The position numbers and the translations under genes were made by a program. 24,000 nucleotides of DNA from Candidatus Nanopelagicaceae bacterium. Lineage in GTDB: Bacteria > Actinomycetota > Actinomycetes > Nanopelagicales > Nanopelagicaceae. The notes below the pieces were generated by a model that was not told the DNA's origin, did not search any database, and worked only from the letters and a program-made list of their open reading frames with translations. Below are positions 8,172-23,379 of this stretch, one piece after another. The first letter of the stretch is position 1; each line of letters begins with the position of its first letter. The stretch covers positions 113,944-137,943 of the forward strand of contig SHVK01000001.1 of the NCBI GenBank assembly GCA_009694285.1, given 5' to 3'.

Positions 8172-8223
8172 GATTAAGTCCTAGACTTAGACGTAGTAGC
8201 GCGGGAGTTGTACGGGGAGCCAA

Positions 8224-9906
8224 ATGAGAAATAGCATGAAAATAATTTGTGCACTTCTGCTCTCATTTAGCATTATTGGATCTGCTATTGGTGAAAGTAT
8301 TCCCGCTCATTCTTCAACCTCGGGACTACCAAGCACGTGGCCGACAGTTCCTTCAATAGGATTTTCAGCGAGTGATGACAGCTTGATAGAAACAAGGTCA
8401 TATGTGACCGGATTTTCTTATGCGGAAGGCGCCACTAGTGGCCTCTACGCACGCACGGTTGTATGCACTTCTGTCGACGATGTTGCATGTGCCAGTGCAG
8501 ATTCCATCTTTGCGCAACTGATCCTGCCGCCATGTTCGGCTTCCGTGACTGAAATGTGCGTTGAATCTTTAGAGGTTTCAGATACAAAAGGCGTATTGAA
8601 AAAGGCAACATACGGTTATGAATTGCCAGGGCAGAAGTATCCAGCGAGCAAAGTTCGAAATTCACCGGCTGGTGGTACACCAAGTGTATGGAACGCTAAG
8701 GAATCGCCTAACTCATCTGGGTCGGATACATATGCAGTCGTTGTTAGCACAACTTTTCAGAACTATCAGAATAAAGGCTGCACTCAGTTCGTAACTGCAC
8801 CCTGTGCTTTTAATCGAGGATTCAGGGCCAGGGTGTATCCGATTAATCTAGTTTCGAACACTGGAGCAAACTCAAATTGCCTATGGTACGAAGGTCAAAA
8901 GTGTGCCCAGAAAGTTGATTTTTCTCCCGTAGCGCGCGCAGCCCTTACGGTGCGAATCGATAATTTGCTAACCGGTTTTCTTTTTGGACGAATTAAAAAT
9001 GTGAACCTAGATTTAACTCCACTCTCACCTTCGACAAATTTACTTAGAGTTGAAGCTGATCCGATTGATGTTCCTAAAATTTATGCCTACGTAGCCAAAA
9101 GTGATTTAAGCAGGTATCCGAAAATCGTGGAGTATTGGAAAGATCGCAGGAAACAGTTAGCCGAAAGCGATTTCACTAGTAAGGACACTGTAGATACCGG
9201 TCCCTCCCCAGAATGGGCAATGGGTGATTTTCAGGCTTTCGAAGATCTGGTTAAGTCAGGTCCACTCGTGAGTTCGATCTGGCGATTTGGCACGCAAACA
9301 GGAACTGGATCTGCATCTGGCAGTAAATGCTTTGACGATAAAAGCAAACTACAAGGTTTAGTCACCACGAATGCACCTACTTATTTTCCGAATCCACCTG
9401 AATTTGTGAATGGCGAATTAACCTACAAAGTAGCAGGGGCGCACCACTTAGCGGATGGTGTGACCTTATTCAAGGGTTTGTACGATCTAGTGCTACGCAG
9501 TGATTTTGCCCGATGCTTATATGGTTTCTCGAATGCACCGATTAGTGCAAAAATTTCAGTTGTTTCCACAGATGGTTCTACGCAAGATATTGCGACCGAA
9601 TCATTGCGGGAGGATGCAGCTCGTCAATGGCTCTATCTCAGTGCTAAGAATTTCACTTTTTCCTCACCAACTATTAAAGTGAAATTGGTGCAGGATAAAC
9701 CTTTGGTTGCGGTTAAAGAAGTGAGTCCAGTGGTACCTGAAAAAGTAGCACCTAAGCAAGAAGCTGCAGCAACAAATACGACAACTGCTGCGCCAGTTGA
9801 GGTAAAGAAAATTGTTATTAAATCGATTAGCTGTGCAAAAGGAAAGATTATCCGAAAAATAAGCGGCACAAATCCAAAATGTCCTGCTGGATTCAAGAAA
9901 AAGTAA
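8224..9906 (+). CDS. Secreted Cys-rich protein of unknown function, with an Ala/Pro/Thr/Glu linker and a basic C-terminal Cys-x16-Cys tail
   Basis: 560 aa. Signal peptide MRNSMKIICALLLSFSIIGSAIG|ES. 14 Cys, mostly in closely spaced pairs. Low-complexity linker PVVPEKVAPKQEAAATNTTTAAPVEV. Tail KSISCAKGKIIRKISGTNPKCPAGFKKK. I recognise no enzymatic motif. Confidence 0.7.
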   Translation: MRNSMKIICALLLSFSIIGSAIGESIPAHSSTSGLPSTWPTVPSIGFSASDDSLIETRSYVTGFSYAEGATSGLYARTVVCTSVDDVACASADSIFAQLILPPCSASVTEMCVESLEVSDTKGVLKKATYGYELPGQKYPASKVRNSPAGGTPSVWNAKESPNSSGSDTYAVVVSTTFQNYQNKGCTQFVTAPCAFNRGFRARVYPINLVSNTGANSNCLWYEGQKCAQKVDFSPVARAALTVRIDNLLTGFLFGRIKNVNLDLTPLSPSTNLLRVEADPIDVPKIYAYVAKSDLSRYPKIVEYWKDRRKQLAESDFTSKDTVDTGPSPEWAMGDFQAFEDLVKSGPLVSSIWRFGTQTGTGSASGSKCFDDKSKLQGLVTTNAPTYFPNPPEFVNGELTYKVAGAHHLADGVTLFKGLYDLVLRSDFARCLYGFSNAPISAKISVVSTDGSTQDIATESLREDAARQWLYLSAKNFTFSSPTIKVKLVQDKPLVAVKEVSPVVPEKVAPKQEAAATNTTTAAPVEVKKIVIKSISCAKGKIIRKISGTNPKCPAGFKKK

Positions 9907-9947
9907 GAACTTCTGCACTTTCCTGAATACTTTGGCACAATTGCGTC

Positions 9948-10664
9948 ATGTCATTAATAATTGTCACTGGGGGCTCGCGCGGACTTGGCTATGAATCTGC
10001 CAAAGCGTTGCGAGCCCAAGGACATCAACTTGTTTTAGTCGCTAAAGATAAAGATCGATTAGTCGAAGCAGCGGCGCAATTAGATTGTGAATATAGAGCG
10101 GTTGATTTAGCAGATTTAGATGCAGCCAAGAGAACGTTCGAAGAGATATTAGGTAGCTTTGGTGTACCAGAGATTTTAATATTGGCGCACGGAGTCATGA
10201 GTGCAAAAATGTCAAAGACTTTAAAGAGTGACAATGAAGAGTGGCGTCGAGTTCTGGCCATTAATCTTGATTCCGTATTTTGCGCTGTGAATACCTTGGC
10301 GGCACCAATGGCTGAAGCGCGAAATGGACGAGTAGTTATTTTCTCTGCTTGTTTAGGCCGGATGTCTGGACCAGGAAATGCGGGAGGGTTAGCTCCTTAT
10401 CGAATTAGCAAAGCAGGAGTAAATGCATTAGTCCGAAATTTGGCACATGAAACTGGATTGGGGCGTCGAGGGTTTCTAGTTGATGCCGTGTGCCCCAACC
10501 ATTCACGAACGGATATGGGCGGACCAGATGCCCCACTATCGGCAGAGGAAGGAGCTCGCACTGCGCTGTGGTTGGCTACGCGAAACTTTGACCTGAATGG
10601 ATCATCTGATCAAGAGAAATTAACAGGGGTGCTTTGGGAAGAGATGAATGTAGTTCCTTGGTGA
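9948..10664 (+). CDS. Short-chain dehydrogenase/reductase (SDR) family oxidoreductase
   Basis: 238 aa. Cofactor motif TGGSRGLG at the N-terminus and catalytic YxxxK (YRISK). Substrate unknown. Confidence 0.85.
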   Translation: MSLIIVTGGSRGLGYESAKALRAQGHQLVLVAKDKDRLVEAAAQLDCEYRAVDLADLDAAKRTFEEILGSFGVPEILILAHGVMSAKMSKTLKSDNEEWRRVLAINLDSVFCAVNTLAAPMAEARNGRVVIFSACLGRMSGPGNAGGLAPYRISKAGVNALVRNLAHETGLGRRGFLVDAVCPNHSRTDMGGPDAPLSAEEGARTALWLATRNFDLNGSSDQEKLTGVLWEEMNVVPW

Positions 10665-10751
10665 TTTTGAGGTCGCACTTTTCATATTTTGAATTAAAAT
10701 AAGACAGTGGCGAATTTTTTGCCTCTTACTTAATCAGAAAATGGTGTTTTC

Positions 10752-11126
10752 ATGGATGAAAAGAAATTACTCTCACTTTGGAACAAAATGCGTTCGCACA
10801 TAATTGCGGCGCAATTCGGTCCAACATTGATGCTTGTTGCTATTTTTGTTGTGGCAAGTTTTGGGAAGTTTCAAATGGCTTCAGATGGAATAAAGTATTT
10901 CACCCTTGGAGTGGCAGCCGCTACAGGAATTCTTGCACTCATCAGCCAGTATGCAGCGATTCGTGAAGCAGAAGCACTTGTTGTTGATCTACAAAAGCTC
11001 GATAAGCCATCAGCATTGGCAAAAAAGGTTGGACAGTCAACATCTTTCCTACAATTAACAGCAGTAGCAATTGTTGCCATGGGTATTGGAACATTTGGCT
11101 TAGCCGCTTGGGCAGTTCTAGGTTAA
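10752..11126 (+). CDS. Hypothetical integral membrane protein (about 3 TM helices)
   Basis: 124 aa. Hydrophobic stretches LMLVAIFVVASF, LGVAAATGILALISQYAAI and LQLTAVAIVAMGIGTFGLAAWAVL. No recognisable family. Confidence 0.55.
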   Translation: MDEKKLLSLWNKMRSHIIAAQFGPTLMLVAIFVVASFGKFQMASDGIKYFTLGVAAATGILALISQYAAIREAEALVVDLQKLDKPSALAKKVGQSTSFLQLTAVAIVAMGIGTFGLAAWAVLG

Positions 11127-11128
11127 AT

Positions 11129-11254
11129 ATGAAAGGCCTTTTAGTTGCAGTAGTTATTTTCACCGTAATTATTGCTTTATTAATCATCAGCTACGAGGCT
11201 CCAGCGCGAAGTAAAAAAAAGTTATCGGGTCGTGGCGGGGATTTTGAAAGTTAA
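11129..11254 (+). CDS. Possible 41-aa single-pass membrane mini-protein (not in the supplied ORF track)
   Basis: ATG at 11129 lies 2 nt after the previous stop. Translation: MKGLLVAVVIFTVIIALLIISYEAPARSKKKLSGRGGDFES*, one TM helix plus a basic tail. Support is limited to ORF shape and tight spacing. Confidence 0.3.
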   Translation: MKGLLVAVVIFTVIIALLIISYEAPARSKKKLSGRGGDFES

Positions 11255-11289
11255 GCCCTGCCTCGACGCACATTAAATTTTTACAACGT

Positions 11290-12762
11290 TCAAATATTTC
11301 CCGCCTCTAAGCCTTCAAGAACTTCTTTTGCCCGCTCCTTAAGCTCGGACAAATCACTCAATCGGTTTAAGCCAAATATTTGTTGACTCATTCGATGGTT
11401 TTTGATGAAGGTTTCTTTATGGCGTTCAAGAAAATCCCAATACAAAGTTGTGAATGGGCAGGCCTTTTCACCTATACGCAACTTAGGATCATAAACACAA
11501 GGCTTGCAGTAGTTAGACATTCGTGAAATGTATGCACCACCTGCCGCATAAGGCTTAGTCATCATGGTCCCACCGTCGGCATGTACGCCCATTCCAATTA
11601 CATTTGGAACCATTACCCATTCGGATGCATCAATAAATACCTCACGCATCCACTCTAAAAATTCTTGCGGATTTGTACCTGTAATCAGAGCAAGATTTGA
11701 AAGCAACATCAGGCGCGGGATGTGGTGAACCCAAGCACGATTATTTATGTCAGTCACGGTCTCTTTTATGCAATTCATCCGGGTTTTATCCGGGTCACTA
11801 AACAAAGGCAGCAGTTTTTTGGTGGCATTTAACTGATTGTTCTCACGGTAATTAGGGCCTAGGAACCAATACATGCCGTTTACATATTCACGCCAACCGA
11901 TAACTTGCCGGATAAAACCTTCGGCGGATTCGATTGGGATTGAGCCCGTGTTAAATGCTTTCACAGCAGCTCTGATTACTTCACTTGGGTGGAGCAGTCC
12001 ATTGTTCAAATATGGAGAGAGTAAAGAATGATGAAGCGCCCAATTGTCAGTGGTCATGGCATCTTCAAGTGGACCAAATTGCGCAAAATGATTATCAATA
12101 AAGTTTTTCAACTGGCTCAGGGCACCTTTGCGAGTAGTAGCCCAGGTGGTTGTAGGTGCATAAGAAATTTCAAGGGCTACTTGATTATCAATCTCATCTC
12201 TCTGGTGCTTGAGGTATTTCGGTCCTTCATATTTCTTAGGAGGCGGCAAACGGTTCTCTTTGTCGAAGTTCCACGAGCCACCTACAGGTTCACTGCCATC
12301 CATCAATATGTTTAAACGTGTCCTTTGTTTTCTATAGAAGCTTTCCATTAAATAACTTTTTTGATTATTAGCCCATGATTGAAATAGTGGTCTCGGCGTT
12401 AGAAAGAAATCGTTGTCAACGAAACTAACTCCATACGCTTTAAGTGCTTCAAATTGCCGAAAGGATGAAGGCTCGGCACAGATAATTGGAAGTTTTGGAT
12501 AGTTGTTTTCAATACCCTTGAGACCATCTATTGTGGTGGCAGCTTTTACATACTCAACTGTAAATCCTTCATCTTCAAGAGATTTTGCAAAGTGACGGGC
12601 GCTAGAGATTAGAAAGAAGAGTCGTTCTTTATGCCAATTTCGCCCTGTAGTCATACGAGCACTTTCGATTAAGGCAATTAAATCTTCTTTTGGATCTGCC
12701 TCTTTGAGGGCGCCAAAGTTACGGTGTAAATGATCAAAAGGAATATAGATAATTCGCTTCAT
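11290..12762 (-). CDS. Fe-S bacterial cryptochrome/photolyase (FeS-BCP / CryPro class; PhrB-like (6-4) photolyase)
   Basis: 490 aa. Cys331, Cys419, Cys422 and Cys435 have spacings of 88/3/13, matching as I recall the [4Fe-4S] ligands of Agrobacterium PhrB (C350/C438/C441/C454). HHxxR motif (WVHHIPR). Overall COG3046-like photolyase-related architecture. Confidence 0.88.
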
Positions 12763-12902
12763 TTATTTTCTCGACAACGATCGCTACAATATTTCACTTC
12801 ATTCCAGTTCTTGGCCCATTTTTTGCGCCATTCAAATTCAAGATTGCAACGGACGCAGATTTTTGGTGGAAACCCATTCTTATCTTTTGCGAACCGTGGC
12901 AT
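12759..12902 (-). CDS. 47-aa Cys4 zinc-ribbon-like mini-protein (DUF2256-like), translationally coupled to the photolyase gene
   Basis: Hand-translated; below the ORF-track length cutoff. [47 protein letters not shown], with CxxC-x19-CxxxC. Its TGA (12759-12761) overlaps the photolyase ATG (12760-12762) as ATGA. Confidence 0.7.
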
Positions 12903-13087
12903 AGCGCAAAGAATAGTCTTGAATAGCTAAAAATTCAGAGCGAAGGATTGCGAACTACAACGGCTTGCCTCAAGTGATGAAACCCACTTGTTTATTTGCG
13001 CAATAAATTAAACAAGCAGGTCAAGAGATAATGTTGGCAGCATAAGCAGAAATAATGCAGAAGCACCAAAGACAACCGAGCCTGCTC

Positions 13088-14134
13088 TTACAAGATTGTC
13101 GTGATTTTGCTGATTTGGCGGAACTTGCCAGGCTCATCACCTTTACGATTAGCCAATACTAAAGTCAGAATCTGCATAACAATTATTTCACTTATTGGCC
13201 GAGCGAGTTGAGATGTTAATTGAGGAGCTGAAATGCCCGGATGTAAAGGTTGGGCTTCTGCAGAAATCCAGACTGGATTTGCTTTTAGCTTAATTAAATC
13301 TTTAAACATCAATGAATTGAGCGAACGTTGATTGTCATAGCCTTCGAGAATAAGAACCGCCACTCCTTCTGAAGCCATTTCTAGCGGACCGTGTCGGAAC
13401 TGCGCTGTTGTGAGGCTTTCCAAACTTTCGCGTGCCGCTTCTTTGATAATTAGTGAACCGGTACGAGCTGCAGCCATTGATTCGCCGCGGCCAACTATAA
13501 AAATAGTTTTTTGCTGAATAGCGGAATCTAGAGCTTCATAACACTCTGCCCAATTTTCTAAATATGTTTTTAAAATTTTTGAGAGTTGGGATATCTCTGG
13601 ATCTATTTCTTCAGACAAAGCAACAGAGGTTGCCATTCCTGCAGCAAGAAGTGTGTTGAGGTAACTTTTTGCGCTGACCGTATTTTCTGACCCACATTGG
13701 ATATTAAAAAGAAAATTAGATCTAGACCCAAGTTTGCTCTCTGGATAATTAGTGAAACCAAGAATCGTGACATCGCCTTTGACGGACTCCAATTCATTTA
13801 GCAACTGAGCAACCTCAGCAGACTCGCCTGATTGAGATGCGATCCAGAAAAGTGTTCTGCCTTTTATACGTCCCTTGATATTTATGAGCAGTTCAGCGGT
13901 GTCCTCATGCCACACTGGAAATCCAGCTGAAACTAACCGTAGATAGCTTGGATAAAGCGCATTTAAGGAAGAACCCATTCCGGTCAAAATTATGCGATCA
14001 AAGTTAGCCATGTCATCCAGCAGAGATTTTGTTTTAGTAGAAATACCCGCGGAGATTAATTTCTCAACTGCTTCCGGCTGGGCCTGGATATCAGCAAAGT
14101 ACGGAGCGTTCTCAATGAGTTGGAATCTGGGCAT
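13088..14134 (-). CDS. Double-SIS-domain sugar-phosphate isomerase/deaminase (GlmS C-terminal-like, AgaS/NagB-II type)
   Basis: 348 aa with no glutaminase domain. Two SIS-like halves (ILTGMGSSLNA...; FIVGRGESMAAARTGSLIIKEA...). Divergent from a ROK kinase gene. Confidence 0.75.
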   Translation of the reverse strand: MPRFQLIENAPYFADIQAQPEAVEKLISAGISTKTKSLLDDMANFDRIILTGMGSSLNALYPSYLRLVSAGFPVWHEDTAELLINIKGRIKGRTLFWIASQSGESAEVAQLLNELESVKGDVTILGFTNYPESKLGSRSNFLFNIQCGSENTVSAKSYLNTLLAAGMATSVALSEEIDPEISQLSKILKTYLENWAECYEALDSAIQQKTIFIVGRGESMAAARTGSLIIKEAARESLESLTTAQFRHGPLEMASEGVAVLILEGYDNQRSLNSLMFKDLIKLKANPVWISAEAQPLHPGISAPQLTSQLARPISEIIVMQILTLVLANRKGDEPGKFRQISKITTIL

Positions 14135-14267
14135 GAGCGAATAATATCATCCAGAGTTTTAGGTAAACACTGGACTAAGTTAAACCTAACAATTACTCTC
14201 AATTGGTAAGTCAAACCCGACGAATCACAAAGCTGCAGAGGATCTGCATAAAGGTTGCGAGGATTAA

Positions 14268-15182
14268 TTGCTCGACTGGGCTGTAGGTATTGACCTTGGT
14301 GGCACGAACATTCGTGTCGCTAAGGTTGACGTCTTGGGCAAAGTTTCACAGCCAATTTTTGTAGAAATAGATAAGAGCTATGCGGATTCGCCAAACTTTG
14401 CTCAGATAATTTCAATTGTCGAGGGGATCATTTCAAGTAATCAAGAGCATCCACCACTTGGTATTGGTTTTGGAGTTACGGGGCCAATTAATGTGAAAAC
14501 CGGAATTATTGATAATCCATTTACCTTACCTGCATATTTTCAAGGCAATATTAAGAAAACCTTAGAAGACAAATTTAACCTCAAAGTAGTGGTTGAAAAT
14601 GATGCAAATGCGGCTTGTATTGGTGAAGCAATCTTTGGAGCTGGTGAGGGCGCAGAGATGGTCGCGTGCTTGATTTTAGGTACGGGCGTAGGGGTTGGTG
14701 TCATCAATAATGGAGTTGTCTACAGAGGTGCTAATGGTGCGCATCCCGAAGCAGGGCACGTGCACGTTGATGCAACAGGTCCGTTTTGTTACTGTGGCAG
14801 AAATGGCTGCTTAGAAGCTTTAGTTTCAGGCACAGCATTGAAAAATATCGGAGTTGAGCGTGGAGTTCTAACTGCTGAACAAAATGCGAAAGATCTTGTT
14901 CACCTTGCCGAGACAGGTAATAAGGATGCGGTTCGGATAATGCAGGAAGCACAACAGGCACTGGGTTTGGGAGTCATAAATTTAATTTATACATATGGGC
15001 CAGAAAAAATCATTATTACCGGTGGTGCCTTGAGCCGCACGGATTCACTCCTCATTGAATTACAAGCTATTGCGGATGAGGCGTGTACTTACACAAAGTT
15101 AAGGAGCGAAATTAAATTCGGATCACTTGGGGATTGGGCCGGAACAATTGGCGCGGCCACTCGAATAATCAGATCCTGGTAA
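14268..15182 (+). CDS. ROK-family sugar kinase
   Basis: 304 aa. N-terminal ATP motif GIDLGGTNIRV and the ROK zinc motif GHVHVDATGPFCYCGRNGCLEA. TTG start preceded by GAGGA (14259-14263). Confidence 0.88.
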   Translation: MLDWAVGIDLGGTNIRVAKVDVLGKVSQPIFVEIDKSYADSPNFAQIISIVEGIISSNQEHPPLGIGFGVTGPINVKTGIIDNPFTLPAYFQGNIKKTLEDKFNLKVVVENDANAACIGEAIFGAGEGAEMVACLILGTGVGVGVINNGVVYRGANGAHPEAGHVHVDATGPFCYCGRNGCLEALVSGTALKNIGVERGVLTAEQNAKDLVHLAETGNKDAVRIMQEAQQALGLGVINLIYTYGPEKIIITGGALSRTDSLLIELQAIADEACTYTKLRSEIKFGSLGDWAGTIGAATRIIRSW

Positions 15183-15196
15183 GAAAATTATTGAGT

Positions 15197-15964
15197 TTAA
15201 GGCAATGGAATCAAGGTATTTGCAAAGATCTGCCAAGCTAGAGCGGATTTTGCAACCAACGAAAGAGTTATATAGGTACGTTCTCCACGCAAGTAATTGC
15301 TCCACTTGCCCACTTTCTTGTATTGCACCCATTGAACTAAAGCAAAAGAGTTAAAGAAAATAAAGATCGTAAAAACAATTCCATAGACAAAGGCTGGGGC
15401 TGAGGTATCACTAACTCCGCCAATTGAAAGCACATAAAAAGCAAGTGCGATCCAAGGAACAATTCCAGTGATGCAACCAAAAATAAATGGCAGCCATCCA
15501 CCATTTCCTGGTGCCTCATACTTTTCTTGCAACCAACCAAACAAAATCATTGAAGCATTAACTCCAAAGATTGAGATGAGTGCTGTTATATCTGCGATAC
15601 CAGTTACTTGAGCGATCAATACAATCATCACTGAAGAGCTAATTGAGTATTCAACCCATCTGAAATAATTTCGTTGAGCTGATAAGCCAGCGCTGTAACG
15701 AGGAAAAAATTGTGGGCTAGCAACAATGAAATGGAAGAGCGCGGAAAGTCCTAAGAAGAGCGCAACTGCTAGTCCGATCGGCGTGCTAAAAAGAATCACT
15801 GATGGAGCAAATGAGGAACCTGGCGGACCGGCCATGTAAGTGGCAGTTACTGGCAATGCAAAATCACTGCTTAACGCTAAGACTGCGGCCATTTGCACTA
15901 AGTGCAAAATTCCAGCCAAGATATTTACTTTGCGAAGTCGGGCCATCGTTAGGTCTTTGCTCAT
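15197..15964 (-). CDS. Heliorhodopsin (7-TM retinal-binding protein with inverted topology)
   Basis: 255 aa. Seven predicted TM helices (approx. residues 15-32, 56-82, 100-120, 126-145, 158-179, 192-213, 230-251). Lys239 (codon 15248-15250) sits mid-TM7 in SLVAKSALAWQ. Glu105 (codon 15650-15652) sits in TM3, FRWVEYSISSSVMIVLIAQ. His21 and His78 are present. The K/R-rich N-terminus implies N-in topology. Long blocks match my memory of heliorhodopsin 48C12 (GLAVALFLGLSALFHFIV, FGVNASMILFGWLQEKY, FFNSFALVQ, KWSNYLRGER). Confidence 0.93.
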   Translation of the reverse strand: MSKDLTMARLRKVNILAGILHLVQMAAVLALSSDFALPVTATYMAGPPGSSFAPSVILFSTPIGLAVALFLGLSALFHFIVASPQFFPRYSAGLSAQRNYFRWVEYSISSSVMIVLIAQVTGIADITALISIFGVNASMILFGWLQEKYEAPGNGGWLPFIFGCITGIVPWIALAFYVLSIGGVSDTSAPAFVYGIVFTIFIFFNSFALVQWVQYKKVGKWSNYLRGERTYITLSLVAKSALAWQIFANTLIPLP

Positions 15965-16015
15965 AAATGAAACGTACCTCAGATATCAAGGTAAATAGAT
16001 AGATCGGCGGTTGGG

Positions 16016-16088
16016 TGCCTCGAGTCGGATTTGAACCGACACTATGCAGTGTTTGAGACTGCCCTCTCTACCGTTGGAGTACCGAGGC
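16016..16088 (-). tRNA. tRNA with anticodon CAA (Leu by anticodon) but class-I architecture (5-nt variable loop); isotype uncertain
   Basis: Folded by hand. Acceptor GCCUCGG/UCGAGGC (one G-U pair), U8, D arm CUC-C-AACGGUAG-A-GAG with a GG dinucleotide, anticodon stem GCAGU/ACUGC, loop CUCAAAC, variable loop AUAGU, T arm GUCGG-UUCAAAU-CCGAC, discriminator A, followed by CCC (no encoded CCA). Confidence 0.85.
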
Positions 16089-16137: not shown

Positions 16138-16755
16138 GTGACTAATTCACCCAATGCTCAGCAAGTGGCTCCAAGGATCGCGCCAAGAATTATTGTTGCT
16201 GAAGACGAGGCGATTATCCGAATGGATCTAATTGAGATGTTGCGCGAGGCTGGATATAACGTCATTGGCGAAGCGGCAAATGGTCGTGAGGCGATCTCAT
16301 TGGCCCGCCATTTAAAACCGGATTTGGCGATTTTAGATGTGAAGATGCCGGAGATTGATGGCATTTCAGCGGCTGAACTAATCGTCAGTGAGAAATTGGC
16401 TGCCGTCTTGATGCTGACCGCTTTCAGTCAAAGAGAGTTAGTCGAGCGGGCCCGAGATGCTGGGGCAATGGCTTACCTAGTTAAGCCATTTTCGATTAGC
16501 GACCTGACCCCAGCGATCGAGATGGCCCTTGGCAGATACGCCCAGATTCAGGCCCTAGAGGCCGAGGTTGGCCAGCTTGGGGAGAGATTGGAAGCCCGAA
16601 AGTTGGTGGATCGGGCCAAAGGGGTTTTGATGGCTAATTTGGGGATCACCGAGCCAGAGGCATTTAAATGGATCCAAAAGGCGGCCATGGATCAACGCAG
16701 CTCAATGAGCGCGGTGAGCGAGGGGGTCCTCGCCCATTATCAGCCGGGGAGTTAA
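16138..16755 (+). CDS. pdtaR: PdtaR-like response regulator (receiver domain plus ANTAR RNA-binding domain)
   Basis: 205 aa. Receiver: IIVAEDEAIIRMDL...DLAILDVKMPEIDG. ANTAR: LEARKLVDRAKGVLMANLGITEPEAFKWIQKAAMDQRSSM. The GTG start is uncertain; an alternative GTG lies at 16165. Confidence 0.88.
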   Translation: MTNSPNAQQVAPRIAPRIIVAEDEAIIRMDLIEMLREAGYNVIGEAANGREAISLARHLKPDLAILDVKMPEIDGISAAELIVSEKLAAVLMLTAFSQRELVERARDAGAMAYLVKPFSISDLTPAIEMALGRYAQIQALEAEVGQLGERLEARKLVDRAKGVLMANLGITEPEAFKWIQKAAMDQRSSMSAVSEGVLAHYQPGS

Positions 16756-16892
16756 CGGTCTGTTAATTTAATATTTTGCTTTTTGGGGTGTCGAAATTGG
16801 GCAACTGCTGGCATACTCGGCTGGTCAAAGCGCTTATCTCGGGGGTCTTTTTCGAGAAAGCTGACAATCTGAAAATATCCGAAAGGGAAATA

Positions 16893-18158
16893 ATGCAAAT
16901 TTCAAAGAAACTTAAGGTTGTTGCTGCATTTGCAGTTGCAAGCTTGGTCTTTGCTGGTTGCTCAAAGTCCGCTTCTGAAGAAGAAGCTGCACCAGCTGAG
17001 GAAGCTGCTGTAGTAAAAGGGACTGGACCATTAAAGATCGGCTCACTACTTCCAGAGACCGGCAGCCTCGCATTTCTCGGACCTCCTGAGTTTGCCGGCG
17101 TTGACCTAGCTGTTGCTGAAATCAACGCAGCAGGTGGCGTTCTTGAACAACCAATCGAGCACATTCGTGGCGATTCCGGAGATACAAGTACAGACATTGC
17201 ACAACAGACTGCTGATTCACATATCGCAGCTGGAGTAGGCGCAATTGTTGGTGCTGCATCTTCAGGTGTTTCATTAACTGTTATCGATAAAATCTCAGGT
17301 GCTGGCATTGTTCACTTCTCACCAGCAAACACCTCCCCAGATTTGACCAGCTATGCAGACAATGGCTTCTACTTCCGTAGCGCTCCTTCAGATACATTCC
17401 AAGGTGCAGTTCTCGGACAGTTGATGGCGGCTAACGGCGCAAAGAACGCTGTTTTCCTAAACCTTGATGATGCATACGGAAACGGTCTTGCTAAGTACGG
17501 TATTGCTGGATTCACCGGGACCTCAACACAGGTTGTGTACAACCCACAAGCTGCTGAGTTTTCTGCTGATGTTTCAAAGGCAAAGGCTGCAAAGCCAGAT
17601 GCAATTGCAATCATCGGATTCGATGAGACCACAAAAGTTCTCACCGAATTGATCAAGCAAGGCATTGGACCAAACAAGGTTAAGACCTACCTTGTTGATG
17701 GAAACCTTTCATCAGGTGCATACAAGGATCTTCCAAAGAACATCATGAAGGGCGTCAAGGCAACACTTCCTGGCGTATTCACAAATGATGAACTAAAGAA
17801 GCGTCTACTTGGTGTAGATCCTAAATTAACCGACTTCTCATACGCTCCAGAGTCATATGACGCTGTAGTGCTAATTGCGCTCGCTGCTGAGCAGGGTAAG
17901 GGAACTGATGGAACAACCATCAGAGATAACCTCACATCTGTTTCATCAGGTGGAACAAAGTGCACCACATTCGCTGATTGCAAAGCATTGATCGCTGCTG
18001 GTACCGATATCGATTACGACGGAGTTTCTGGCGCAATTGAATTCGATGCTAACGGAGATCCATCTGTAGCAACAATGGGTGTCTATGAGTACGTAGCAAA
18101 TGACAAGTACGAAGCTCGTGCCGCTGAATTCATCACCGGTGCCGTACCTGCCGCTTAG
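16893..18158 (+). CDS. livJ: Branched-chain/hydrophobic amino-acid ABC transporter substrate-binding lipoprotein (LivJ/LivK family, type I PBP)
   Basis: I chose ATG 16893 (MQISKKLKVVAAFAVASLVFAGC, lipobox LVFAGC) with SD GAAAGGGA upstream. The track start at 16776 adds 39 unlikely residues. Typical motifs: LKIGSLLPETGSLAFLG and AVAEINAAGGVL. Confidence 0.88.
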   Translation: MQISKKLKVVAAFAVASLVFAGCSKSASEEEAAPAEEAAVVKGTGPLKIGSLLPETGSLAFLGPPEFAGVDLAVAEINAAGGVLEQPIEHIRGDSGDTSTDIAQQTADSHIAAGVGAIVGAASSGVSLTVIDKISGAGIVHFSPANTSPDLTSYADNGFYFRSAPSDTFQGAVLGQLMAANGAKNAVFLNLDDAYGNGLAKYGIAGFTGTSTQVVYNPQAAEFSADVSKAKAAKPDAIAIIGFDETTKVLTELIKQGIGPNKVKTYLVDGNLSSGAYKDLPKNIMKGVKATLPGVFTNDELKKRLLGVDPKLTDFSYAPESYDAVVLIALAAEQGKGTDGTTIRDNLTSVSSGGTKCTTFADCKALIAAGTDIDYDGVSGAIEFDANGDPSVATMGVYEYVANDKYEARAAEFITGAVPAA

Positions 18159-18196
18159 TAGTCATAAAGTTCACGCACTTTTACTTTTAAAGTGAA

Positions 18197-18961
18197 GTGC
18201 AAGAAAGAGCCCCGCTTAACGGTGGGGCTCTTTCTTATTCCCACGACAGATACTTATACTTACGTTGGTTTGATAGAAGGGAGAAAAGTTTCATAGAACA
18301 TAACCAAGAGCACGCTGGTCATGAATACTTTTCGCAACTCTATGGCGCAACTTCATCAGAAGGTGATCCACAACAAACTATTTTCGATAAGTGGCGCGAC
18401 AAAATGCTGGTAAAGGCATTTAGAAAGTACAGCTATCACAATCTTTCAACTTCAGATGTTCTAGATGTTGGCTGTGGCTACGGCTGGCTGCTCGACGCAT
18501 TTGAGGGCGCGCAAAGTTTGTGCGGAGTGGATATTGCTCACCATGCTGTAGAAGTTGCCGCAAAACGAAAACCAGAAAGATTTTTCAAACAAGGGGATCT
18601 GCATGATCCAAATCCTTTTGAGCAAAAATTTGATTTGATTTTGGCGATCAACATTATTGAACACCTTAGTAATCCTGTTGCTGGCATCGAATCAATAAAA
18701 AATGCGGCAAAACCTGGAGCGATCGTCTTGGTACATATGCCAACAATTAGCAATTGGTTGACTCGATGGGAATACTCAAAACTCTATGATTCAGACCCCA
18801 CCCATATATATCGTCCATCAGGTAAAACAGTTCGCAAATTATTTGAAGCTAATGGGTTTGAAACTTTGCGAGATTCGTATTTGCCACATTTCCCAGCATT
18901 TCTGACCAAGATTTGGCCGATCCACCCAGCTTATTTAGCGGTCTTTAAACGCAATTCGTAA
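18197..18961 (+). CDS. Class I SAM-dependent methyltransferase (start codon uncertain)
   Basis: Motif I VLDVGCGYGWLL, followed by FDLILAINIIEH. The stop is secure. The only canonical upstream start, GTG 18197, abuts the livJ terminator hairpin (see findings). Confidence 0.8.
   Translation: MQERAPLNGGALSYSHDRYLYLRWFDRREKSFIEHNQEHAGHEYFSQLYGATSSEGDPQQTIFDKWRDKMLVKAFRKYSYHNLSTSDVLDVGCGYGWLLDAFEGAQSLCGVDIAHHAVEVAAKRKPERFFKQGDLHDPNPFEQKFDLILAINIIEHLSNPVAGIESIKNAAKPGAIVLVHMPTISNWLTRWEYSKLYDSDPTHIYRPSGKTVRKLFEANGFETLRDSYLPHFPAFLTKIWPIHPAYLAVFKRNS
18201..18239 (+). terminator. Rho-independent terminator downstream of livJ
   Basis: AAGAAAGAGCCCC (18201-18213) pairs perfectly with GGGGCTCTTTCTT (18224-18236) around a 10-nt loop. 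The GC core GAGCCCC/GGGGCTC is followed by TTTCTTATT. The A-tract on the 5' side makes it potentially bidirectional. Confidence 0.8.
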
Positions 18962-18964
18962 AAT

Positions 18965-19714
18965 TTAAGCGTTTGCCGCAAGAGTTCCCAGGTACAACTC
19001 AATTACTTTCGGATCATGAGCGAGAGATTTTCCAGTTCCAGTGTAAGCATTTCTACCTTGGTCGAGGACATATCCACGATCAACAATTTGCAGACAGCGC
19101 CTGGCGTTTTGCTCAACCATAATTACAGTTACTCCAGTGCGATTAATCTCGCGCACTCTGACAAATACCTCATCTTGCAAAGCCGGGGATAAGCCCGCAC
19201 TTGGTTCATCTAACAACAGAACTGATGGGTTCATCATTAATGCCCGGCCCATAGCAACCATCTGGCGTTCACCTCCAGAGAGGGAACCAGCTCTTTGTTT
19301 ACGACGATCGCCAAGGGTTGGAAAGAGAGAGGTAACAAAATCAAACCGTTCATTAAATTGATCAGCGGCTTGATAGGCACCCATTTGCAGGTTCTCTTCA
19401 ATTGTTAGGGATGGGAAAACATTATTTGTCTGTGGCACAAAACCGATTCCTTTTTTAACTAACTCATCGGCACGTTTATTTGTAATCTCTTCTCCACGCA
19501 ACTTCACAAAACCATCTCTTACTTTGACTAGACCGAAGAGTGCCTTCAATAAAGTTGATTTTCCAGCGCCATTTGGACCAATGATGCCTACCAATTCACC
19601 TTCATTTGCGTACAGATCACACCCATTAAGAATATTTATCCCAGGAAGATAACCAGCGATTATGCCGCCAGCTTCAAGTAATAGATCATCACCAGCTAAT
19701 TTTGTAGGTTCCAT
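18965..19714 (-). CDS. livF: Branched-chain amino-acid ABC transporter ATP-binding protein LivF
   Basis: I chose the start at ATG 19712-19714 (MEPTKLAGDDLLLEAG...), 4 nt after the livG stop. The track start at 19822 would overlap livG by about 100 nt. Walker A GPNGAGKST, signature LSGGERQM, Walker B LLLDEPS. Confidence 0.9.
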   Translation of the reverse strand: MEPTKLAGDDLLLEAGGIIAGYLPGINILNGCDLYANEGELVGIIGPNGAGKSTLLKALFGLVKVRDGFVKLRGEEITNKRADELVKKGIGFVPQTNNVFPSLTIEENLQMGAYQAADQFNERFDFVTSLFPTLGDRRKQRAGSLSGGERQMVAMGRALMMNPSVLLLDEPSAGLSPALQDEVFVRVREINRTGVTVIMVEQNARRCLQIVDRGYVLDQGRNAYTGTGKSLAHDPKVIELYLGTLAANA

Positions 19715-19718
19715 TTGG

Positions 19719-20594
19719 CTAGCCTCGATCCTGTTCAAGAGTGGAATCATGATGTGCGCCAAGGTATGCGTCAATGACAGCTTTGTCGCGCATGACGATA
19801 TTTGGTGGACCTTCAGCAACAATTACACCTTGGGCCATAACAATTACCCAGTCACTTATATCTCGCACCATATCCATGTCGTGCTCAACAAATAAAACTG
19901 TCATTCCATCTTCGCGCAAATCCTTAATATGACCAAGAAGTGATTGCTTAAGAGCAGGGTTAACGCCTGCCATTGGTTCATCAAGCATCACCAACTCTGG
20001 CTCAACCATTAACGCTCTGGCCATCTCAAGAAGTTTGCGTTGACCACCAGAGAGGGCAGCAGCAAAATCATCGCGCTTGTCAATCAATTTAAATCTAGTT
20101 AGCAACTCTTCACTTCTTGCAGTTGCCGCTTTCTCCTGCGCATTCCATAGAAAAGGAAGTGCAGCCCGTAAAATAGATTCACCTTTTTGTTTTGTCGCCG
20201 CTAGACGCATATTGTCAATCACAGTTAAACGGTAAAGCGCTTTAGTTAATTGAAAAGTCCGCACCATTCCCATTCGTGCAACTTTATGAGGGGGAGTTCC
20301 CGAGATCTTCACTCCATTAAAACTCCATGAACCTTCATTAACTTGATCAAAGCCGGTCAATAAATTAAAGAAAGTTGTTTTTCCAGCACCATTAGGACCA
20401 ATCAGTGCAGTGATCGCACCTCTTTGAATTTCAAGATGGCTAACATTTACTGCGGTTAAACCACCAAATTTACGTACAACATGGTCGGCAACGATTATTG
20501 GATCAGGCTTGCTTACTCCCGGGGTCGGGGTAATTCCAGCAAGAGCGGCTAAAGCAATATCGCGACGTGAAGTATTTTGACTAGGCGCGGGCAT
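19719..20594 (-). CDS. livG: Branched-chain amino-acid ABC transporter ATP-binding protein LivG
   Basis: 291 aa. FGGLTAVN...GPNGAGKTTFFNLLTG, LSGGQRKLLEMARAL, VMLDEPMAG. 14-nt overlap with livM. Confidence 0.9.
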   Translation of the reverse strand: MPAPSQNTSRRDIALAALAGITPTPGVSKPDPIIVADHVVRKFGGLTAVNVSHLEIQRGAITALIGPNGAGKTTFFNLLTGFDQVNEGSWSFNGVKISGTPPHKVARMGMVRTFQLTKALYRLTVIDNMRLAATKQKGESILRAALPFLWNAQEKAATARSEELLTRFKLIDKRDDFAAALSGGQRKLLEMARALMVEPELVMLDEPMAGVNPALKQSLLGHIKDLREDGMTVLFVEHDMDMVRDISDWVIVMAQGVIVAEGPPNIVMRDKAVIDAYLGAHHDSTLEQDRG

Positions 20595-21576
20595 CTAGAG
20601 CCAACTCCTTTCGGTCACCAAAAATTCCTTGTGGTCTGAAGATCATTAGCATCATCAATCCAAGACCAACCAACATAAAGCGAATCTGCCCTACTTGATT
20701 AACACCAATTAGCCATTCAGGAATGTACCCAGCGCTCACCGCTTGGCGCAACATCTGTTCAATAAAGACGAGCAAAAACCAAAAAATAATTGAACCGGCT
20801 ATTGGCGCAAAGACGCGAGCCGCTCCACCAAGAATCAAAACGGTATAAGCAAAAAAGGTAAGTGCAGTTCCGTAATTATCAGGCTGCACAGATTGACGAG
20901 AAAGAGCATAAACAAAGCCTGCAAAGGAGCCCACAATGCCACCAATAATTAATGATTGCATTTTGTAGAGGTAAACATTTTTACCTAACGAGCGAACTGC
21001 TTCCTCATCTTCGCGGATAGATTTAAGCACCCGTCCCCAAGGAGAGCGAACTAGAAGCCACATCACAAAAAGAACTACGATTACTAATGCCCAGCCAGTC
21101 ACTACGACCCACAGATCGTTGCCGTTATAACGCAGGAATGGGGTATTTAGTCCACTTTTAAAGGGATTTAGAGCAAAGAAATCTTTTCCAAATTTTCCAG
21201 TAATTCCATCTGAACCACCAAGATATTTATTGAATGTAGCCGAGCGTGCAATCTGCCTAATAATTTCAGCAGCCGCAATGGTAACAATCGCTAAATAATC
21301 CGCACGTAATCTTAAAGTCGGCAAACCAAGTAGTAGAGCAAGGATCACTGAGTTAAGTATTCCAGCTAATAGAGCAGCCCAAAGTGGAAAATTAAAGGAG
21401 ACTACAAGAGTGGCAACGCTGTAAGCACCAACTGCTAGAAATCCGGCTTGGCCGAAGTTAAGTAATCCGGTATATCCAAAATGCATATTTAAACCAATTG
21501 CCGCCAGTGCAAAAATTATTGTATTAACTCCTAATGCCGCACTAAATGATTGTTGCGCGATAAATATAAAATCCAT
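20581..21576 (-). CDS. livM: Branched-chain amino-acid ABC transporter permease LivM
   Basis: 331 aa, polytopic. LGLNMHFGYTGLLNFGQAGFLAVGAY is typical of LivM. The start overlaps the livH stop (TAATG). Confidence 0.88.
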   Translation of the reverse strand: MDFIFIAQQSFSAALGVNTIIFALAAIGLNMHFGYTGLLNFGQAGFLAVGAYSVATLVVSFNFPLWAALLAGILNSVILALLLGLPTLRLRADYLAIVTIAAAEIIRQIARSATFNKYLGGSDGITGKFGKDFFALNPFKSGLNTPFLRYNGNDLWVVVTGWALVIVVLFVMWLLVRSPWGRVLKSIREDEEAVRSLGKNVYLYKMQSLIIGGIVGSFAGFVYALSRQSVQPDNYGTALTFFAYTVLILGGAARVFAPIAGSIIFWFLLVFIEQMLRQAVSAGYIPEWLIGVNQVGQIRFMLVGLGLMMLMIFRPQGIFGDRKELALDARA

Positions 21577-22865
21577 TATCCAACCCGCTCTTTCCGGCCG
21601 AGGATGCCTTGCGGGCGAACTAATAAAATTATGATCAAAATTAACAGTGCACCAACATATTTAAGTTCTGTTGGAATAATTAAAGTTGAAAGTTGAATCA
21701 ACACGCCAATAACCAGAGAGCCAACTAGCGCTCCATATGCAGTTCCTAACCCACCAAGAGTTACTGCTGCAAAAATCAGCAACAACATATCCTGACCCAT
21801 CAAGAAACTGACACCTTGATTTAAGGTGACCATGATTCCGGCAAAACCCGCCAAGAATGCACCTAAAATCCAAACAGATCTAATTACTGCTTCAACTTCA
21901 ATTCCAGAGGCAGCAGCAAGGGCGGGATTATCGGCAACTGCTCGACTTGCTTTACCCATTTTGCTGCGCAATAGCCAAAGTGTGGCGCCAATAAGCAAAA
22001 GTAATCCAACAGATGTGCTCATGATTGATTTAGGGGTGATGCTGACTAGCCCAATTTCTAGCCCTGCTTGTCCAGCAAATTGAGGTAATTGTCTGGTGTC
22101 TCCACTAAATATAAATAGGAAAACATATCTGACAAAAATTGCAAATCCGATTGACACAACAAGCATTGCGATCAAGCCAGTGCCACGTTTTCGCAACGGT
22201 TTCCAGAGTAATCGATCCTGTAAATAACCGCCGATGAGCGCAGAGAGTGCAACCGCTACAGGAATCGCAGCAAAAACTGGCAATCCAGCAACAGCGCTAA
22301 AGAAGTAAGTAAGCAATCCACCAAGAGTTAAAAGTTCACCATGTGCAAAGTTGGTTAATCCAGTTGTTCCAAATACTAAATTTAAACCAAGTGCAGCGAG
22401 TGCAATAATGATGCCAAGAATCAATCCGTCGGCAAGTAATTGCGCCGATTGATCAAGGATGGGAGTTTTTTCGGTGCCTGGTCCGATCGGAAATAAAACT
22501 GTGAGAGTGGTACCGAGCATTAATACATTTATTTTGCGCGTTGCTTTTGTTACATCAGTTAATGCTTGTCCACTGGGCAGCGATGTTTGATCAAGAGTGA
22601 CGTCATAGATTCCGGTTGAAGTGACTTTGACTTGCCATTTACCCATTTGATCAGAGGTAAGTTGTGTTGCAAAACCATTTGGTCCGGTCAGCTTGATCCT
22701 CACCCCTGGTAATGGAGTTGAAGTTGAATCTTTAATCTCGCCGGCAAGAATTGATGATGTGCCGGCGGCAAGTGCCGACCCTGAAATTGAAAATGAGCTA
22801 ATTAGGAAAAAGCCAGCCAATCCAAGTGCAATCTTGCGCATCAATTGAGCCTTTCCCATCTTCAC
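21576..22865 (-). CDS. livH: Branched-chain amino-acid ABC transporter permease LivH with an extra N-terminal signal peptide and beta-sandwich-like domain
   Basis: 429 aa. The core from about residue 140 (LILGIIIALAALGLNLVFGTTGLTNFAHGELLTLGG) is LivH-like. Residues 1-35 form a signal/anchor sequence. Residues 36-135 carry PLPGVRIKLTGPNGFATQLTSDQMGKWQVKVTSTGIYDVTLD. Confidence 0.88.
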   Translation of the reverse strand: MKMGKAQLMRKIALGLAGFFLISSFSISGSALAAGTSSILAGEIKDSTSTPLPGVRIKLTGPNGFATQLTSDQMGKWQVKVTSTGIYDVTLDQTSLPSGQALTDVTKATRKINVLMLGTTLTVLFPIGPGTEKTPILDQSAQLLADGLILGIIIALAALGLNLVFGTTGLTNFAHGELLTLGGLLTYFFSAVAGLPVFAAIPVAVALSALIGGYLQDRLLWKPLRKRGTGLIAMLVVSIGFAIFVRYVFLFIFSGDTRQLPQFAGQAGLEIGLVSITPKSIMSTSVGLLLLIGATLWLLRSKMGKASRAVADNPALAAASGIEVEAVIRSVWILGAFLAGFAGIMVTLNQGVSFLMGQDMLLLIFAAVTLGGLGTAYGALVGSLVIGVLIQLSTLIIPTELKYVGALLILIIILLVRPQGILGRKERVG

Positions 22866-22920: not shown

Positions 22921-23379
22921 CTAATTCTCCTTTTTCGGCTCCGGCTTTTCCGATTTAGCATCACTTAAAATTAAACAGGTAATCCGTGCGGTGCAGGTCC
23001 GCACCCCTTCCTCATCGGTGATTACAACTTCATAGCTAGCCAAAGTCCGGCCTAGAGATATTGCGGTGGCGACCCCGGTAACAATTCCACTTTTGGCGGC
23101 ACGATGATGGGTCGCACTTACTTCGATTCCAACAATGCGGCGATCGAGGCCGGCATGTAGGTGAGCGCCAATTGATCCCAAGCTCTCAGCCAGGACCACA
23201 TTGGCGCCGCCATGCAACAACCCAAAGGGTTGCGTATTTCCACTTACCGGCATAGTGCCGACCATTCTCTGGGCGGAGGCTGCAATGATTTCAATACCCA
23301 TTTTTTGATCCAAGGCTCCGCGGCCACGCTCATTTAAAGCAGCCAAATTTTCATTACTTAATTTGTTAAGTGCGCTCAT
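22921..23379 (-). CDS. PaaI-family hotdog-fold acyl-CoA thioesterase
   Basis: 152 aa. MGIEII...PFGLLHGGANVVLAESLGS is typical of the PaaI/DHNA-CoA thioesterase family. Lys/Glu/Pro-rich C-terminal tail. Confidence 0.82.
   Translation of the reverse strand: MSALNKLSNENLAALNERGRGALDQKMGIEIIAASAQRMVGTMPVSGNTQPFGLLHGGANVVLAESLGSIGAHLHAGLDRRIVGIEVSATHHRAAKSGIVTGVATAISLGRTLASYEVVITDEEGVRTCTARITCLILSDAKSEKPEPKKEN

Follow-up and report, generated by a model that had tools for sequence, protein, structure and literature searches.

A conserved subfamily-1 heliorhodopsin of an acI actinobacterium encoded in a variable genomic block without a linked glutamine synthetase gene

The window analysed here, a stretch of 24,000 nucleotides of contig SHVK01000001.1 (assembly GCA_009694285.1, positions 113,944 to 137,943) from a Candidatus Nanopelagicaceae bacterium, encodes at 15197-15964 on its minus strand a heliorhodopsin (HeR), an open reading frame (ORF) of 255 codons and a stop codon with an ATG start, which on the evidence of its sequence is a canonical subfamily-1 HeR of an abundant freshwater actinobacterium of the acI lineage (Nanopelagicaceae). 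We put at roughly 70% the probability that the protein acts as a non-pumping photosensor whose loops mediate the regulation of a cytoplasmic enzyme, with glutamine synthetase (GS), at about one in three, as the single most likely partner. Heliorhodopsins were first described in 2018, and the original prediction, which had been made from this DNA and proposed a HeR of 255 residues at this place while leaving the strand unstated, was right both on the ORF and on the family.

Two family profiles match the protein over their full length, PF18761 (Heliorhodopsin) with 325.5 bits (E 2e-97, profile positions 1-242 of 242, cut-off 26.7) and the NCBIfam equivalog NF038020 'heliorhodopsin HeR' with 345.1 bits against a cut-off of 100. 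The type-1 model Bac_rhodopsin, proposed at the outset as the counterpart to be run beside the Heliorhodopsin model, gave no match to the protein, PF18761 being the sole Pfam family at E<=10. In the comparison with solved structures, 48C12 (6SU3, 6UH3, 9LJJ; E ~6e-111) ranks first, followed by TaHeR (6IS6; 1e-57) and the eukaryotic Cv06 (9VFC; 5e-34), and the E values of 2e-97 for the Pfam profile and 6e-111 for 48C12 exclude a chance match. 48C12 is reportedly a heliorhodopsin from an actinobacterial fosmid of Lake Kinneret.

The alignment with 48C12 (PDB 6SU3) runs gapless from residue 9 to 253 of the query and from 11 to 255 of the chain, with an offset of +2, so that K239 (in LVAKSAL), E105 (in RWVEYSI) and H21 and H78, the sole two histidines of the protein, correspond exactly to K241, E107, H23 and H80; these four residues and their 48C12 counterparts had been named correctly in the original prediction. 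The Schiff-base lysine, the counterion glutamate and both histidines align with TaHeR of a Thermoplasmatales archaeon (6IS6), a distant protein (E 1e-57) from an archaeal host which differs by several loop indels, but shares the fold family and an identical TM7 segment, LSLVAKSALAWQ. The 48C12 structures (PDB 6SU3, 6SU4, 6UH3, 9LJJ) resemble the window HeR in length, lysine, glutamate, histidine pair, SxxxK motif and fenestration over 245 gapless residues. Near identity to 48C12, claimed for long blocks, is borne out in several of them, but over the whole alignment the identity amounts to 170/245 or 69%, with the differences located mainly in the loops and the N-terminus; intracellular loop 3 (ICL3) reads KKVGK in the window HeR versus KGKGK in 48C12.

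Species-representative genomes yielded at least 397 confirmed relatives, and the best 80 of these, almost all from freshwater acI/Nanopelagicaceae metagenome-assembled genomes (MAGs) and isolates, form together with the window a comparison set of 81 loci, designated by L numbers. E105, H21 and H78 are invariant in all 81 HeRs, and so is K239 among the aligned proteins, with an alignment gap at that column in one of the 81. The SxxxK motif, which serves as a HeR criterion in a recent survey (PMC12817590), is present as S235-x-x-x-K239, with S235 and K239 aligned to S237 and K241 of 48C12 and to TaHeR. E105 is the lone acidic residue within helix 3, and the equivalents of bacteriorhodopsin D85/T89/D96 are E105/S109/L116 according to the mapping for AbHeR, a HeR with the same numbering (PMC9529153); a helix-3 transport motif, predicted to be missing, was not found at these positions. 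The retinal pocket residues Y106, F204, F207, Q211 and S235 equal those listed for AbHeR. In the Kovalev classification as applied in PMC9529153, where AbHeR shows I140, A166, P170, I200 and Q211, the subfamily-1 markers I140, P170, I200 and Q211 are present in the window HeR, while position 166 is T and not A.

The closest relative among those compared, L001, is 96% identical, and the HeR of IMCC26077 81%. The ratio of nonsynonymous to synonymous substitution rates (dN/dS) is 0.05 versus L001 and versus L081, a metagenome contig found by a metagenome scan with the ANTAR regulator gene of the window, at an unsaturated dS of 0.45, and the nine relatives compared contain no stop codons. By these measures the HeR gene is intact and under strong purifying selection.

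A 19-residue hydropathy scan yields six peaks, not the seven helices that had been claimed, as helices 3 and 4 merge into a single hydrophobic stretch of 49 residues (98-146) with a turn at G122-D125; the full-length gapless match to the crystallized 48C12 nevertheless leads to seven. In the seven-helix model all 13 lysines and arginines other than K239 fall on the N-terminal side (3, 9, 11 and 12; 89, 98 and 102; 148; 216, 217, 220, 226 and 229) and none on the opposite side, with K3, R9, R11 and K12 making up the basic N-terminus. This computed positive-inside signal and the homology to 48C12, the membrane orientation of which was determined experimentally according to PMC9529153, support the predicted inverted topology with a cytoplasmic N-terminus. 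Type-1 rhodopsins such as the acI actinorhodopsin share the seven helices and the helix-7 Schiff-base lysine, but the window HeR lacks a type-1 profile match at E<=10, is oppositely oriented and is devoid of a D/T/D-type pump motif.

The gene is already known and holds nothing outside established heliorhodopsin knowledge, in agreement with the earlier statement that the family is described and not new. The exact protein sequence is deposited at NCBI as MSO32912.1, a 'hypothetical protein' of a Candidatus Nanopelagicaceae MAG, and falls in a 90%-identity cluster of 265 members; the closest loci and this exact-match record alike belong to Candidatus Nanopelagicaceae (Actinomycetota) and thus to a monoderm host. 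A 2025 survey of new Nanopelagicales isolates reported actinorhodopsin and heliorhodopsin in every one (PMC12817590).

For a comparison of gene neighbourhoods, every ORF lying no more than 7 kb from HeR was clustered across the window and the 80 related loci, and the main clusters were named by Pfam. The commonest arrangement is panB(-) nadE(+) glnA(+) HeR(+) [Gfo/Idh/MocA] leuA recO uppS, with glnA, the GS identity of which was assigned by Pfam, directly 5' of HeR on the same strand at a median distance of 40 bp in 28-29 of the 81 loci; this nadE-glnA-HeR arrangement is the same operon that Cho et al. 2022 (PMC9529153) studied. Other recurrent arrangements are UbiA-HeR-S51, an OYE type, a C27/C36 type and a SDR-C14 type. 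The window contains no glnA, its HeR lying between tRNA-Leu and a convergent ROK gene, and the gene order of the GS group is not found; the neighbours ROK, SIS, regulator, binding protein and gltBD occur near HeR elsewhere only in L001 and L081. In a neighbour-joining tree, GS-adjacent HeRs are spread over several deep clades and the clade of the window is nested among them, which suggests that GS linkage is ancestral and that the gene was relocated in the window lineage. The combined picture suggests that HeR left a probably ancestral nadE-glnA-HeR operon for a variable 7.8-kb block.

In the UbiA-type loci (L053, L060, L061, L071, L074 and L080) a UbiA-family prenyltransferase gene lies directly 5' of HeR on the same strand, and peptidase-S51-like, DCC-type thiol-disulfide and glutaredoxin-like genes follow downstream (HeR at ~10001-10753 in L060 and L071). 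tRNA genes often abut HeR in other lineages as well, with tRNA-Val 68 bp after HeR in L012 (10827-10901), tRNA-Ala ~100 bp after HeR in L017 (10863-10936) and further tRNAs in L013 (12371-12445) and L041 (9848-9922), which fits a tendency toward variable, tRNA-flanked spots. Beside tRNA-Val(aac), the IMCC26077 locus L022 carries two ARAGORN 'tRNA-???' calls with four-base anticodons (4656-4730 and 5333-5407; aacg, cacg), which have odd anticodon loops or are an artefact of the caller.

The closest functional reference is AbHeR of the acI Actinobacteria bacterium IMCC26103, which has the same numbering, E105/S109/L116, pocket residues and K216/K217/K220 as the window HeR. AbHeR-type loci (panB, nadE, glnA, HeR, Gfo/Idh/MocA, leuA) encode HeRs ~75% identical to that of the window, and about 75% identity can be expected for AbHeR itself, judged from the loci that share its gene order. 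AbHeR absorbs at 553 nm and, like 48C12, binds retinal and does not pump; it binds GS and stimulates the enzyme in a light-dependent manner in vitro and in vivo, with a Kd of 100 uM in detergent and of 6 uM as quoted in the abstract (PMC9529153). Mutagenesis combined with isothermal titration calorimetry showed that GS binding is lost in K216Q, K217Q and K220Q and is 2-3 fold tighter in E151Q and D223N (PMC9529153). The window HeR retains K216, K217, K220, R226, E228, E147, K148 and E150, but in contrast to AbHeR, which has E, D and A, it carries A151, N223 and T166, so that positions 151 and 223 are neutral, and it stands alone in a variable block outside the nadE-glnA-HeR operon. The conserved ICL3 lysines fit a shared cytoplasmic interface which would be permissive for GS, but not diagnostic of it. 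As a separator of GS-linked and GS-unlinked HeRs the GS-binding residues had to be discarded, with K216, K217 and K220 near-invariant both in GS-adjacent (28 loci) and in GS-unlinked HeRs (35 loci); only position 151 differs by group, with E/Q in the GS-linked and T/N in the unlinked proteins, a difference which probably tracks phylogeny. By gene order the window HeR is outside the 'GS-group', yet it keeps the GS-binding residues, and by operon structure it is outside the 'photolyase-group'.

As inferred from 48C12 and AbHeR, the protein would bind all-trans retinal, absorb near 550 nm and undergo a slow photocycle without ion pumping. As a light-dependent regulator it would contact a cytoplasmic enzyme via its intracellular loops; were this enzyme GS, HeR would in the light attach to the GS dodecamer by way of its K216/K217/K220 patch, and bound HeR would raise the biosynthetic activity of GS, which would couple nitrogen assimilation to daylight. 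Regulatory functions have been published for three HeRs, the acI HeR with GS (PMC9529153), TfHeR with a photolyase (PMC9769723) and OcHeR with an ABC exporter (PMC11109279), so that the earlier statement that the native role remains open is partly outdated, although the field still debates the matter. TfHeR and OcHeR belong to the same family, and the proposed logic, that the illuminated HeR binds a partner and raises its activity, is shared.

Several points weigh against this assignment of a photosensory regulator of GS. Retinal binding, colour, photocycle and the lack of pumping are extrapolated from 48C12 and AbHeR; the affinity of AbHeR for GS is weak (100 uM in detergent) and was reported by a single laboratory (PMC9529153); the ICL3 residues, equally conserved in the 35 GS-unlinked HeRs, do not discriminate between partners; and, with no glnA in the window, the link to GS is one of homology alone. 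The neighbour-joining tree was midpoint-rooted and carries no bootstrap values. A 2025 preprint still calls the function of HeR a mystery (10.1101/2025.11.27.691015).

The best-placed alternative, although improbable, regards the protein as a two-antenna rhodopsin in which a lateral fenestration recruits exogenous xanthophylls that pass energy to retinal, and this may also add to a regulatory role. In 48C12 numbering the corresponding motif combines opposing aromatics (162 and 206) with small residues (166 and 210) and Gly169; it occurs in 91% of HeRs (Kornilov et al. 2025 preprint) and is fully kept here, with F160, C164, G167, F204, N205 and A208 equivalent to 48C12 F162, C166, G169, F206, N207 and A210. 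However, the support for carotenoid antennae consists of a crystal structure, docking and bioinformatics in a preprint, with binding and energy transfer predicted for HeRs, and an antenna would leave the output undefined, as 48C12 and AbHeR do not pump.

Further alternatives take their partner from the genes next to HeR, and their weight is bound to the history of the region. The backbone order VIT1-gltB-gltD-pyk-tRNA-Leu-regulator is conserved in ten loci of diverse Actinobacteria, the same tRNA lying directly upstream of the ANTAR regulator in 10/10 of the backbone loci examined, and the distance from the pyk start to the regulator is 1.5-3.5 kb in these 10 loci versus 9.4 kb in the window, which marks 8172-16013 as a lineage-specific block. 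The underlying metagenome scan, for which the ANTAR regulator served as query, gave chiefly soil actinobacteria (61-69% identity) and a single close relative, L081; it was sufficient to define the backbone, and the filling of the gap between pyk and tRNA-Leu in other acI genomes is outside its scope. The block comprises the genes for a 560-aa secreted protein, a SDR, unk124 and a micro-ORF, a FeS-BCP photolyase, SIS, ROK and, as the last gene, HeR, and is common to L001 and L081 only. The nearness of HeR to GOGAT, the regulator and the Liv system therefore results from the position of the block and is not a conserved association. The FeS-BCP photolyase is the second light-related gene of the block, and its presence varies between close relatives. 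L081 has the block without window 10666-12595 (against L081 3044-3200), but retains a stub which matches window 12596-12940, covering the 5' part of the photolyase gene together with the region upstream of it, and it keeps the SDR, SIS and ROK flanks and a HeR of 96% identity; gap and stub together indicate that photolyase and unk124 were deleted there while HeR was kept.

This bears on the unlikely proposal that HeR partners the neighbouring FeS-BCP (6-4) photolyase, in which case illuminated HeR would bind the repair enzyme and enhance DNA repair, as in TfHeR. Both genes share a strand within the lineage-specific block, L012 and L013 have a photolyase of the same family no more than 5 kb from HeR, 'Photolyase' is among ten recurrent HeR-neighbour groups (PMC11109279) and TfHeR binds and aids a photolyase (PMC9769723). 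Yet the arrangement of photolyase-group HeRs, with both genes in one operon (Shim et al. 2022; Cho et al. 2024), is not found, the two genes being 2.4 kb apart, separated by the opposite-strand ROK gene and by a SIS gene and not co-transcribed, whereas TfHeR and OcHeR have same-operon partners. L081 lost most of the photolyase, which is thus dispensable there, and kept a HeR with 96% identity and dN/dS 0.05; a photolyase is near HeR in just 3/81 loci, and it also lies beside unk124 without HeR within 10 kb. The photolyase partner of TfHeR is, moreover, reportedly of another type than the PhrB-like FeS-BCP enzyme.

The small membrane protein unk124 was also considered as a partner or transducer of HeR, near which it occurs in 7/81 loci. 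The idea was rejected: with three unk124 homologues on long contigs as anchors, HeR was found within 10 kb in 0/9 places, and L081 dropped unk124, but kept HeR. The companions of unk124 are FeS-BCP photolyase, TspO and the 41-aa micro-ORF. unk124 has three predicted transmembrane (TM) helices and at least 527 homologues, the C-terminus of the micro-ORF carries an invariant KKKxxGRGGDFE motif, and the pair recurs in acI contigs beside FeS-BCP photolyase and TspO, near lexA/nrdR (L161-L169). An att-like direct repeat of 16 nt (14/16 matches, 8119-8134 versus 16013-16028 at the tRNA 3' end) was tried as an island mark and is probably due to chance, as its first copy falls within the coding part of pyk, an estimated ~9 such pairs are expected in 8.1 kb and the window contains no integrase.

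That the relocated HeR gained a different partner or output, be it GOGAT, the pathway of the ANTAR regulator or the FeS-BCP photolyase, is likewise unlikely. Less probable still is a modulation by HeR of the nearby Liv-type ABC transporter or of the ANTAR regulator, analogous to OcHeR, which up-regulates an ABC exporter in the light (PMC11109279). The genes are close enough, 0.8-7 kb separating HeR from livFGMH and the gene of an ABC binding protein, and 174 bp from the divergent ANTAR regulator, but Liv and ANTAR genes are backbone, found beside the regulator in Actinobacteria without HeR at that place, so that their adjacency is a by-product of insertion, and they recur near HeR in none of the other 79 HeR-anchored loci; the OcHeR partner is a heterodimeric multidrug exporter of the same operon (PMC11109279), not an importer on other transcripts. 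Finally, a light-driven or light-gated ion transporter is very improbable: viral V2HeR3 is reported to transport protons, but the transporting viral HeRs are in subfamily 2 and without the fenestration motif present in the window HeR, which groups with 48C12 and AbHeR (subfamily 1), both tested without ion transport.

For the preferred reading, a photosensory regulator outside the glnA operon, HeR would be expressed alone or by tRNA-Leu read-through from the variable 7.8-kb block. The ROK gene is convergent with HeR, with 14 bp between the stop codons, and stands between HeR and the genes for SIS and photolyase, while the ANTAR regulator is divergent from tRNA-Leu and HeR. A GAGG at 15977-15980 is located 12 nt ahead of the HeR ATG. 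Near HeR, a promoter scan gave one promoter-like site versus 2.7 expected from shuffles, and none in the 49-bp spacer, and a terminator scan one site versus 1.6 expected, inside the coding sequence; the 3' junction of HeR folds no better than shuffles (z 0.04), and Rfam detected only the tRNA. HeR is monocistronic or is read through from tRNA-Leu. None of blh, crtB, crtI and crtY was found among the window ORFs of at least 110 aa, also with permissive thresholds for the two family-less ORFs, one for a secreted and one for a small membrane protein, which bears out the earlier remark on the lack of retinal biosynthesis genes for the ORFs scanned; retinal must either be made by genes located elsewhere in the genome or be supplied from the cell's surroundings. 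Nanopelagicus is without blh (PMC12817590). The features of the window are listed in Table 1.

Table 1. Features of the window, with HeR and its key residues first
Feature	Position	Strand	Basis or remark
Heliorhodopsin coding sequence	15197..15964	-	ORF, PF18761, NF038020, gapless 48C12 match, dN/dS 0.05
K239 codon AAA, retinal Schiff-base Lys, helix 7	15248..15250	-	aligns with 48C12 K241 and TaHeR TM7 Lys
K216-K217-V-G-K220 codons, positive patch, cytoplasmic loop 3	15305..15319	-	conserved; GS-binding positions in AbHeR
E105 codon GAA, single counterion, helix 3	15650..15652	-	aligns with 48C12 E107
Spacer from tRNA-Leu to HeR start, 49 bp	15965..16013	-	conserved in L001 and L081
Lineage-specific block, 7.8 kb, pyk to tRNA-Leu 3' side	8172..16013	.	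pyk-regulator distance versus 10 actinobacterial loci
VIT1-family gene, cut by window edge	start-547	+	Pfam
gltB and gltD (GOGAT), backbone	697-6667	+	Pfam
pyk, backbone	6732-8171	+	Pfam
560-aa secreted protein	8224-9906	+	without Pfam or NCBIfam family
SDR	9948-10664	+	profile search
unk124, 124-aa membrane protein	10752-11126	+	without Pfam or NCBIfam family
41-aa single-TM micro-ORF	11129-11254	+	2 nt after unk124
FeS-BCP (6-4) photolyase, PhrB/CryB family	11290-12762	-	PF04244; 4DJA E 3e-112; 3ZXS E 2e-102
SIS-domain protein	13088-14134	-	profile search
ROK-family sugar kinase	14268-15182	+	PF00480; TIGR00744 below its cut-off
tRNA-Leu(CAA), directly upstream of HeR, conserved backbone	16014-16088	-	ARAGORN; Rfam 54 bits
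REC-ANTAR response regulator, backbone	16138-16755	+	PF00072 and PF03861
Liv-type binding protein, methyltransferase, livFGMH	16776-22865	+/-	profile search
Thioesterase	22921-23379	-	profile search
polA start (5'-3' exonuclease N-terminus of DNA polymerase I), cut by edge	23381-end	+	profile search

Some of the neighbouring ORFs call for a remark. The 560-aa protein has a hydrophobic, signal-like segment at its N-terminus, is rich in Lys at its C-terminus and is 75% identical in L081 and 29% to an ORF of L022. The livF and livG ORFs (18965-19822 and 19719-20594) overlap by 104 nt as listed, the upstream start being probably over-extended, and a 181-aa ORF at 16763-17308 (-), antisense to the binding-protein gene, is without family match and looks spurious.

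With crystal structures at hand for 48C12 from a similar freshwater actinobacterium and a published biochemical function for an acI HeR, the discovery value of the gene is little, although the public record MSO32912.1 can now carry a heliorhodopsin annotation. The relocated, GS-unlinked context is a modest curiosity. The lineage nonetheless offers a natural comparison, in which HeR is strongly conserved though off glnA, and the nearest relative lost the photolyase. If the relocated HeR indeed had a new partner, this would represent natural partner switching in a promiscuous photosensor, while binding of GS by this HeR would tell a general function of acI HeRs from an operon-specific one.

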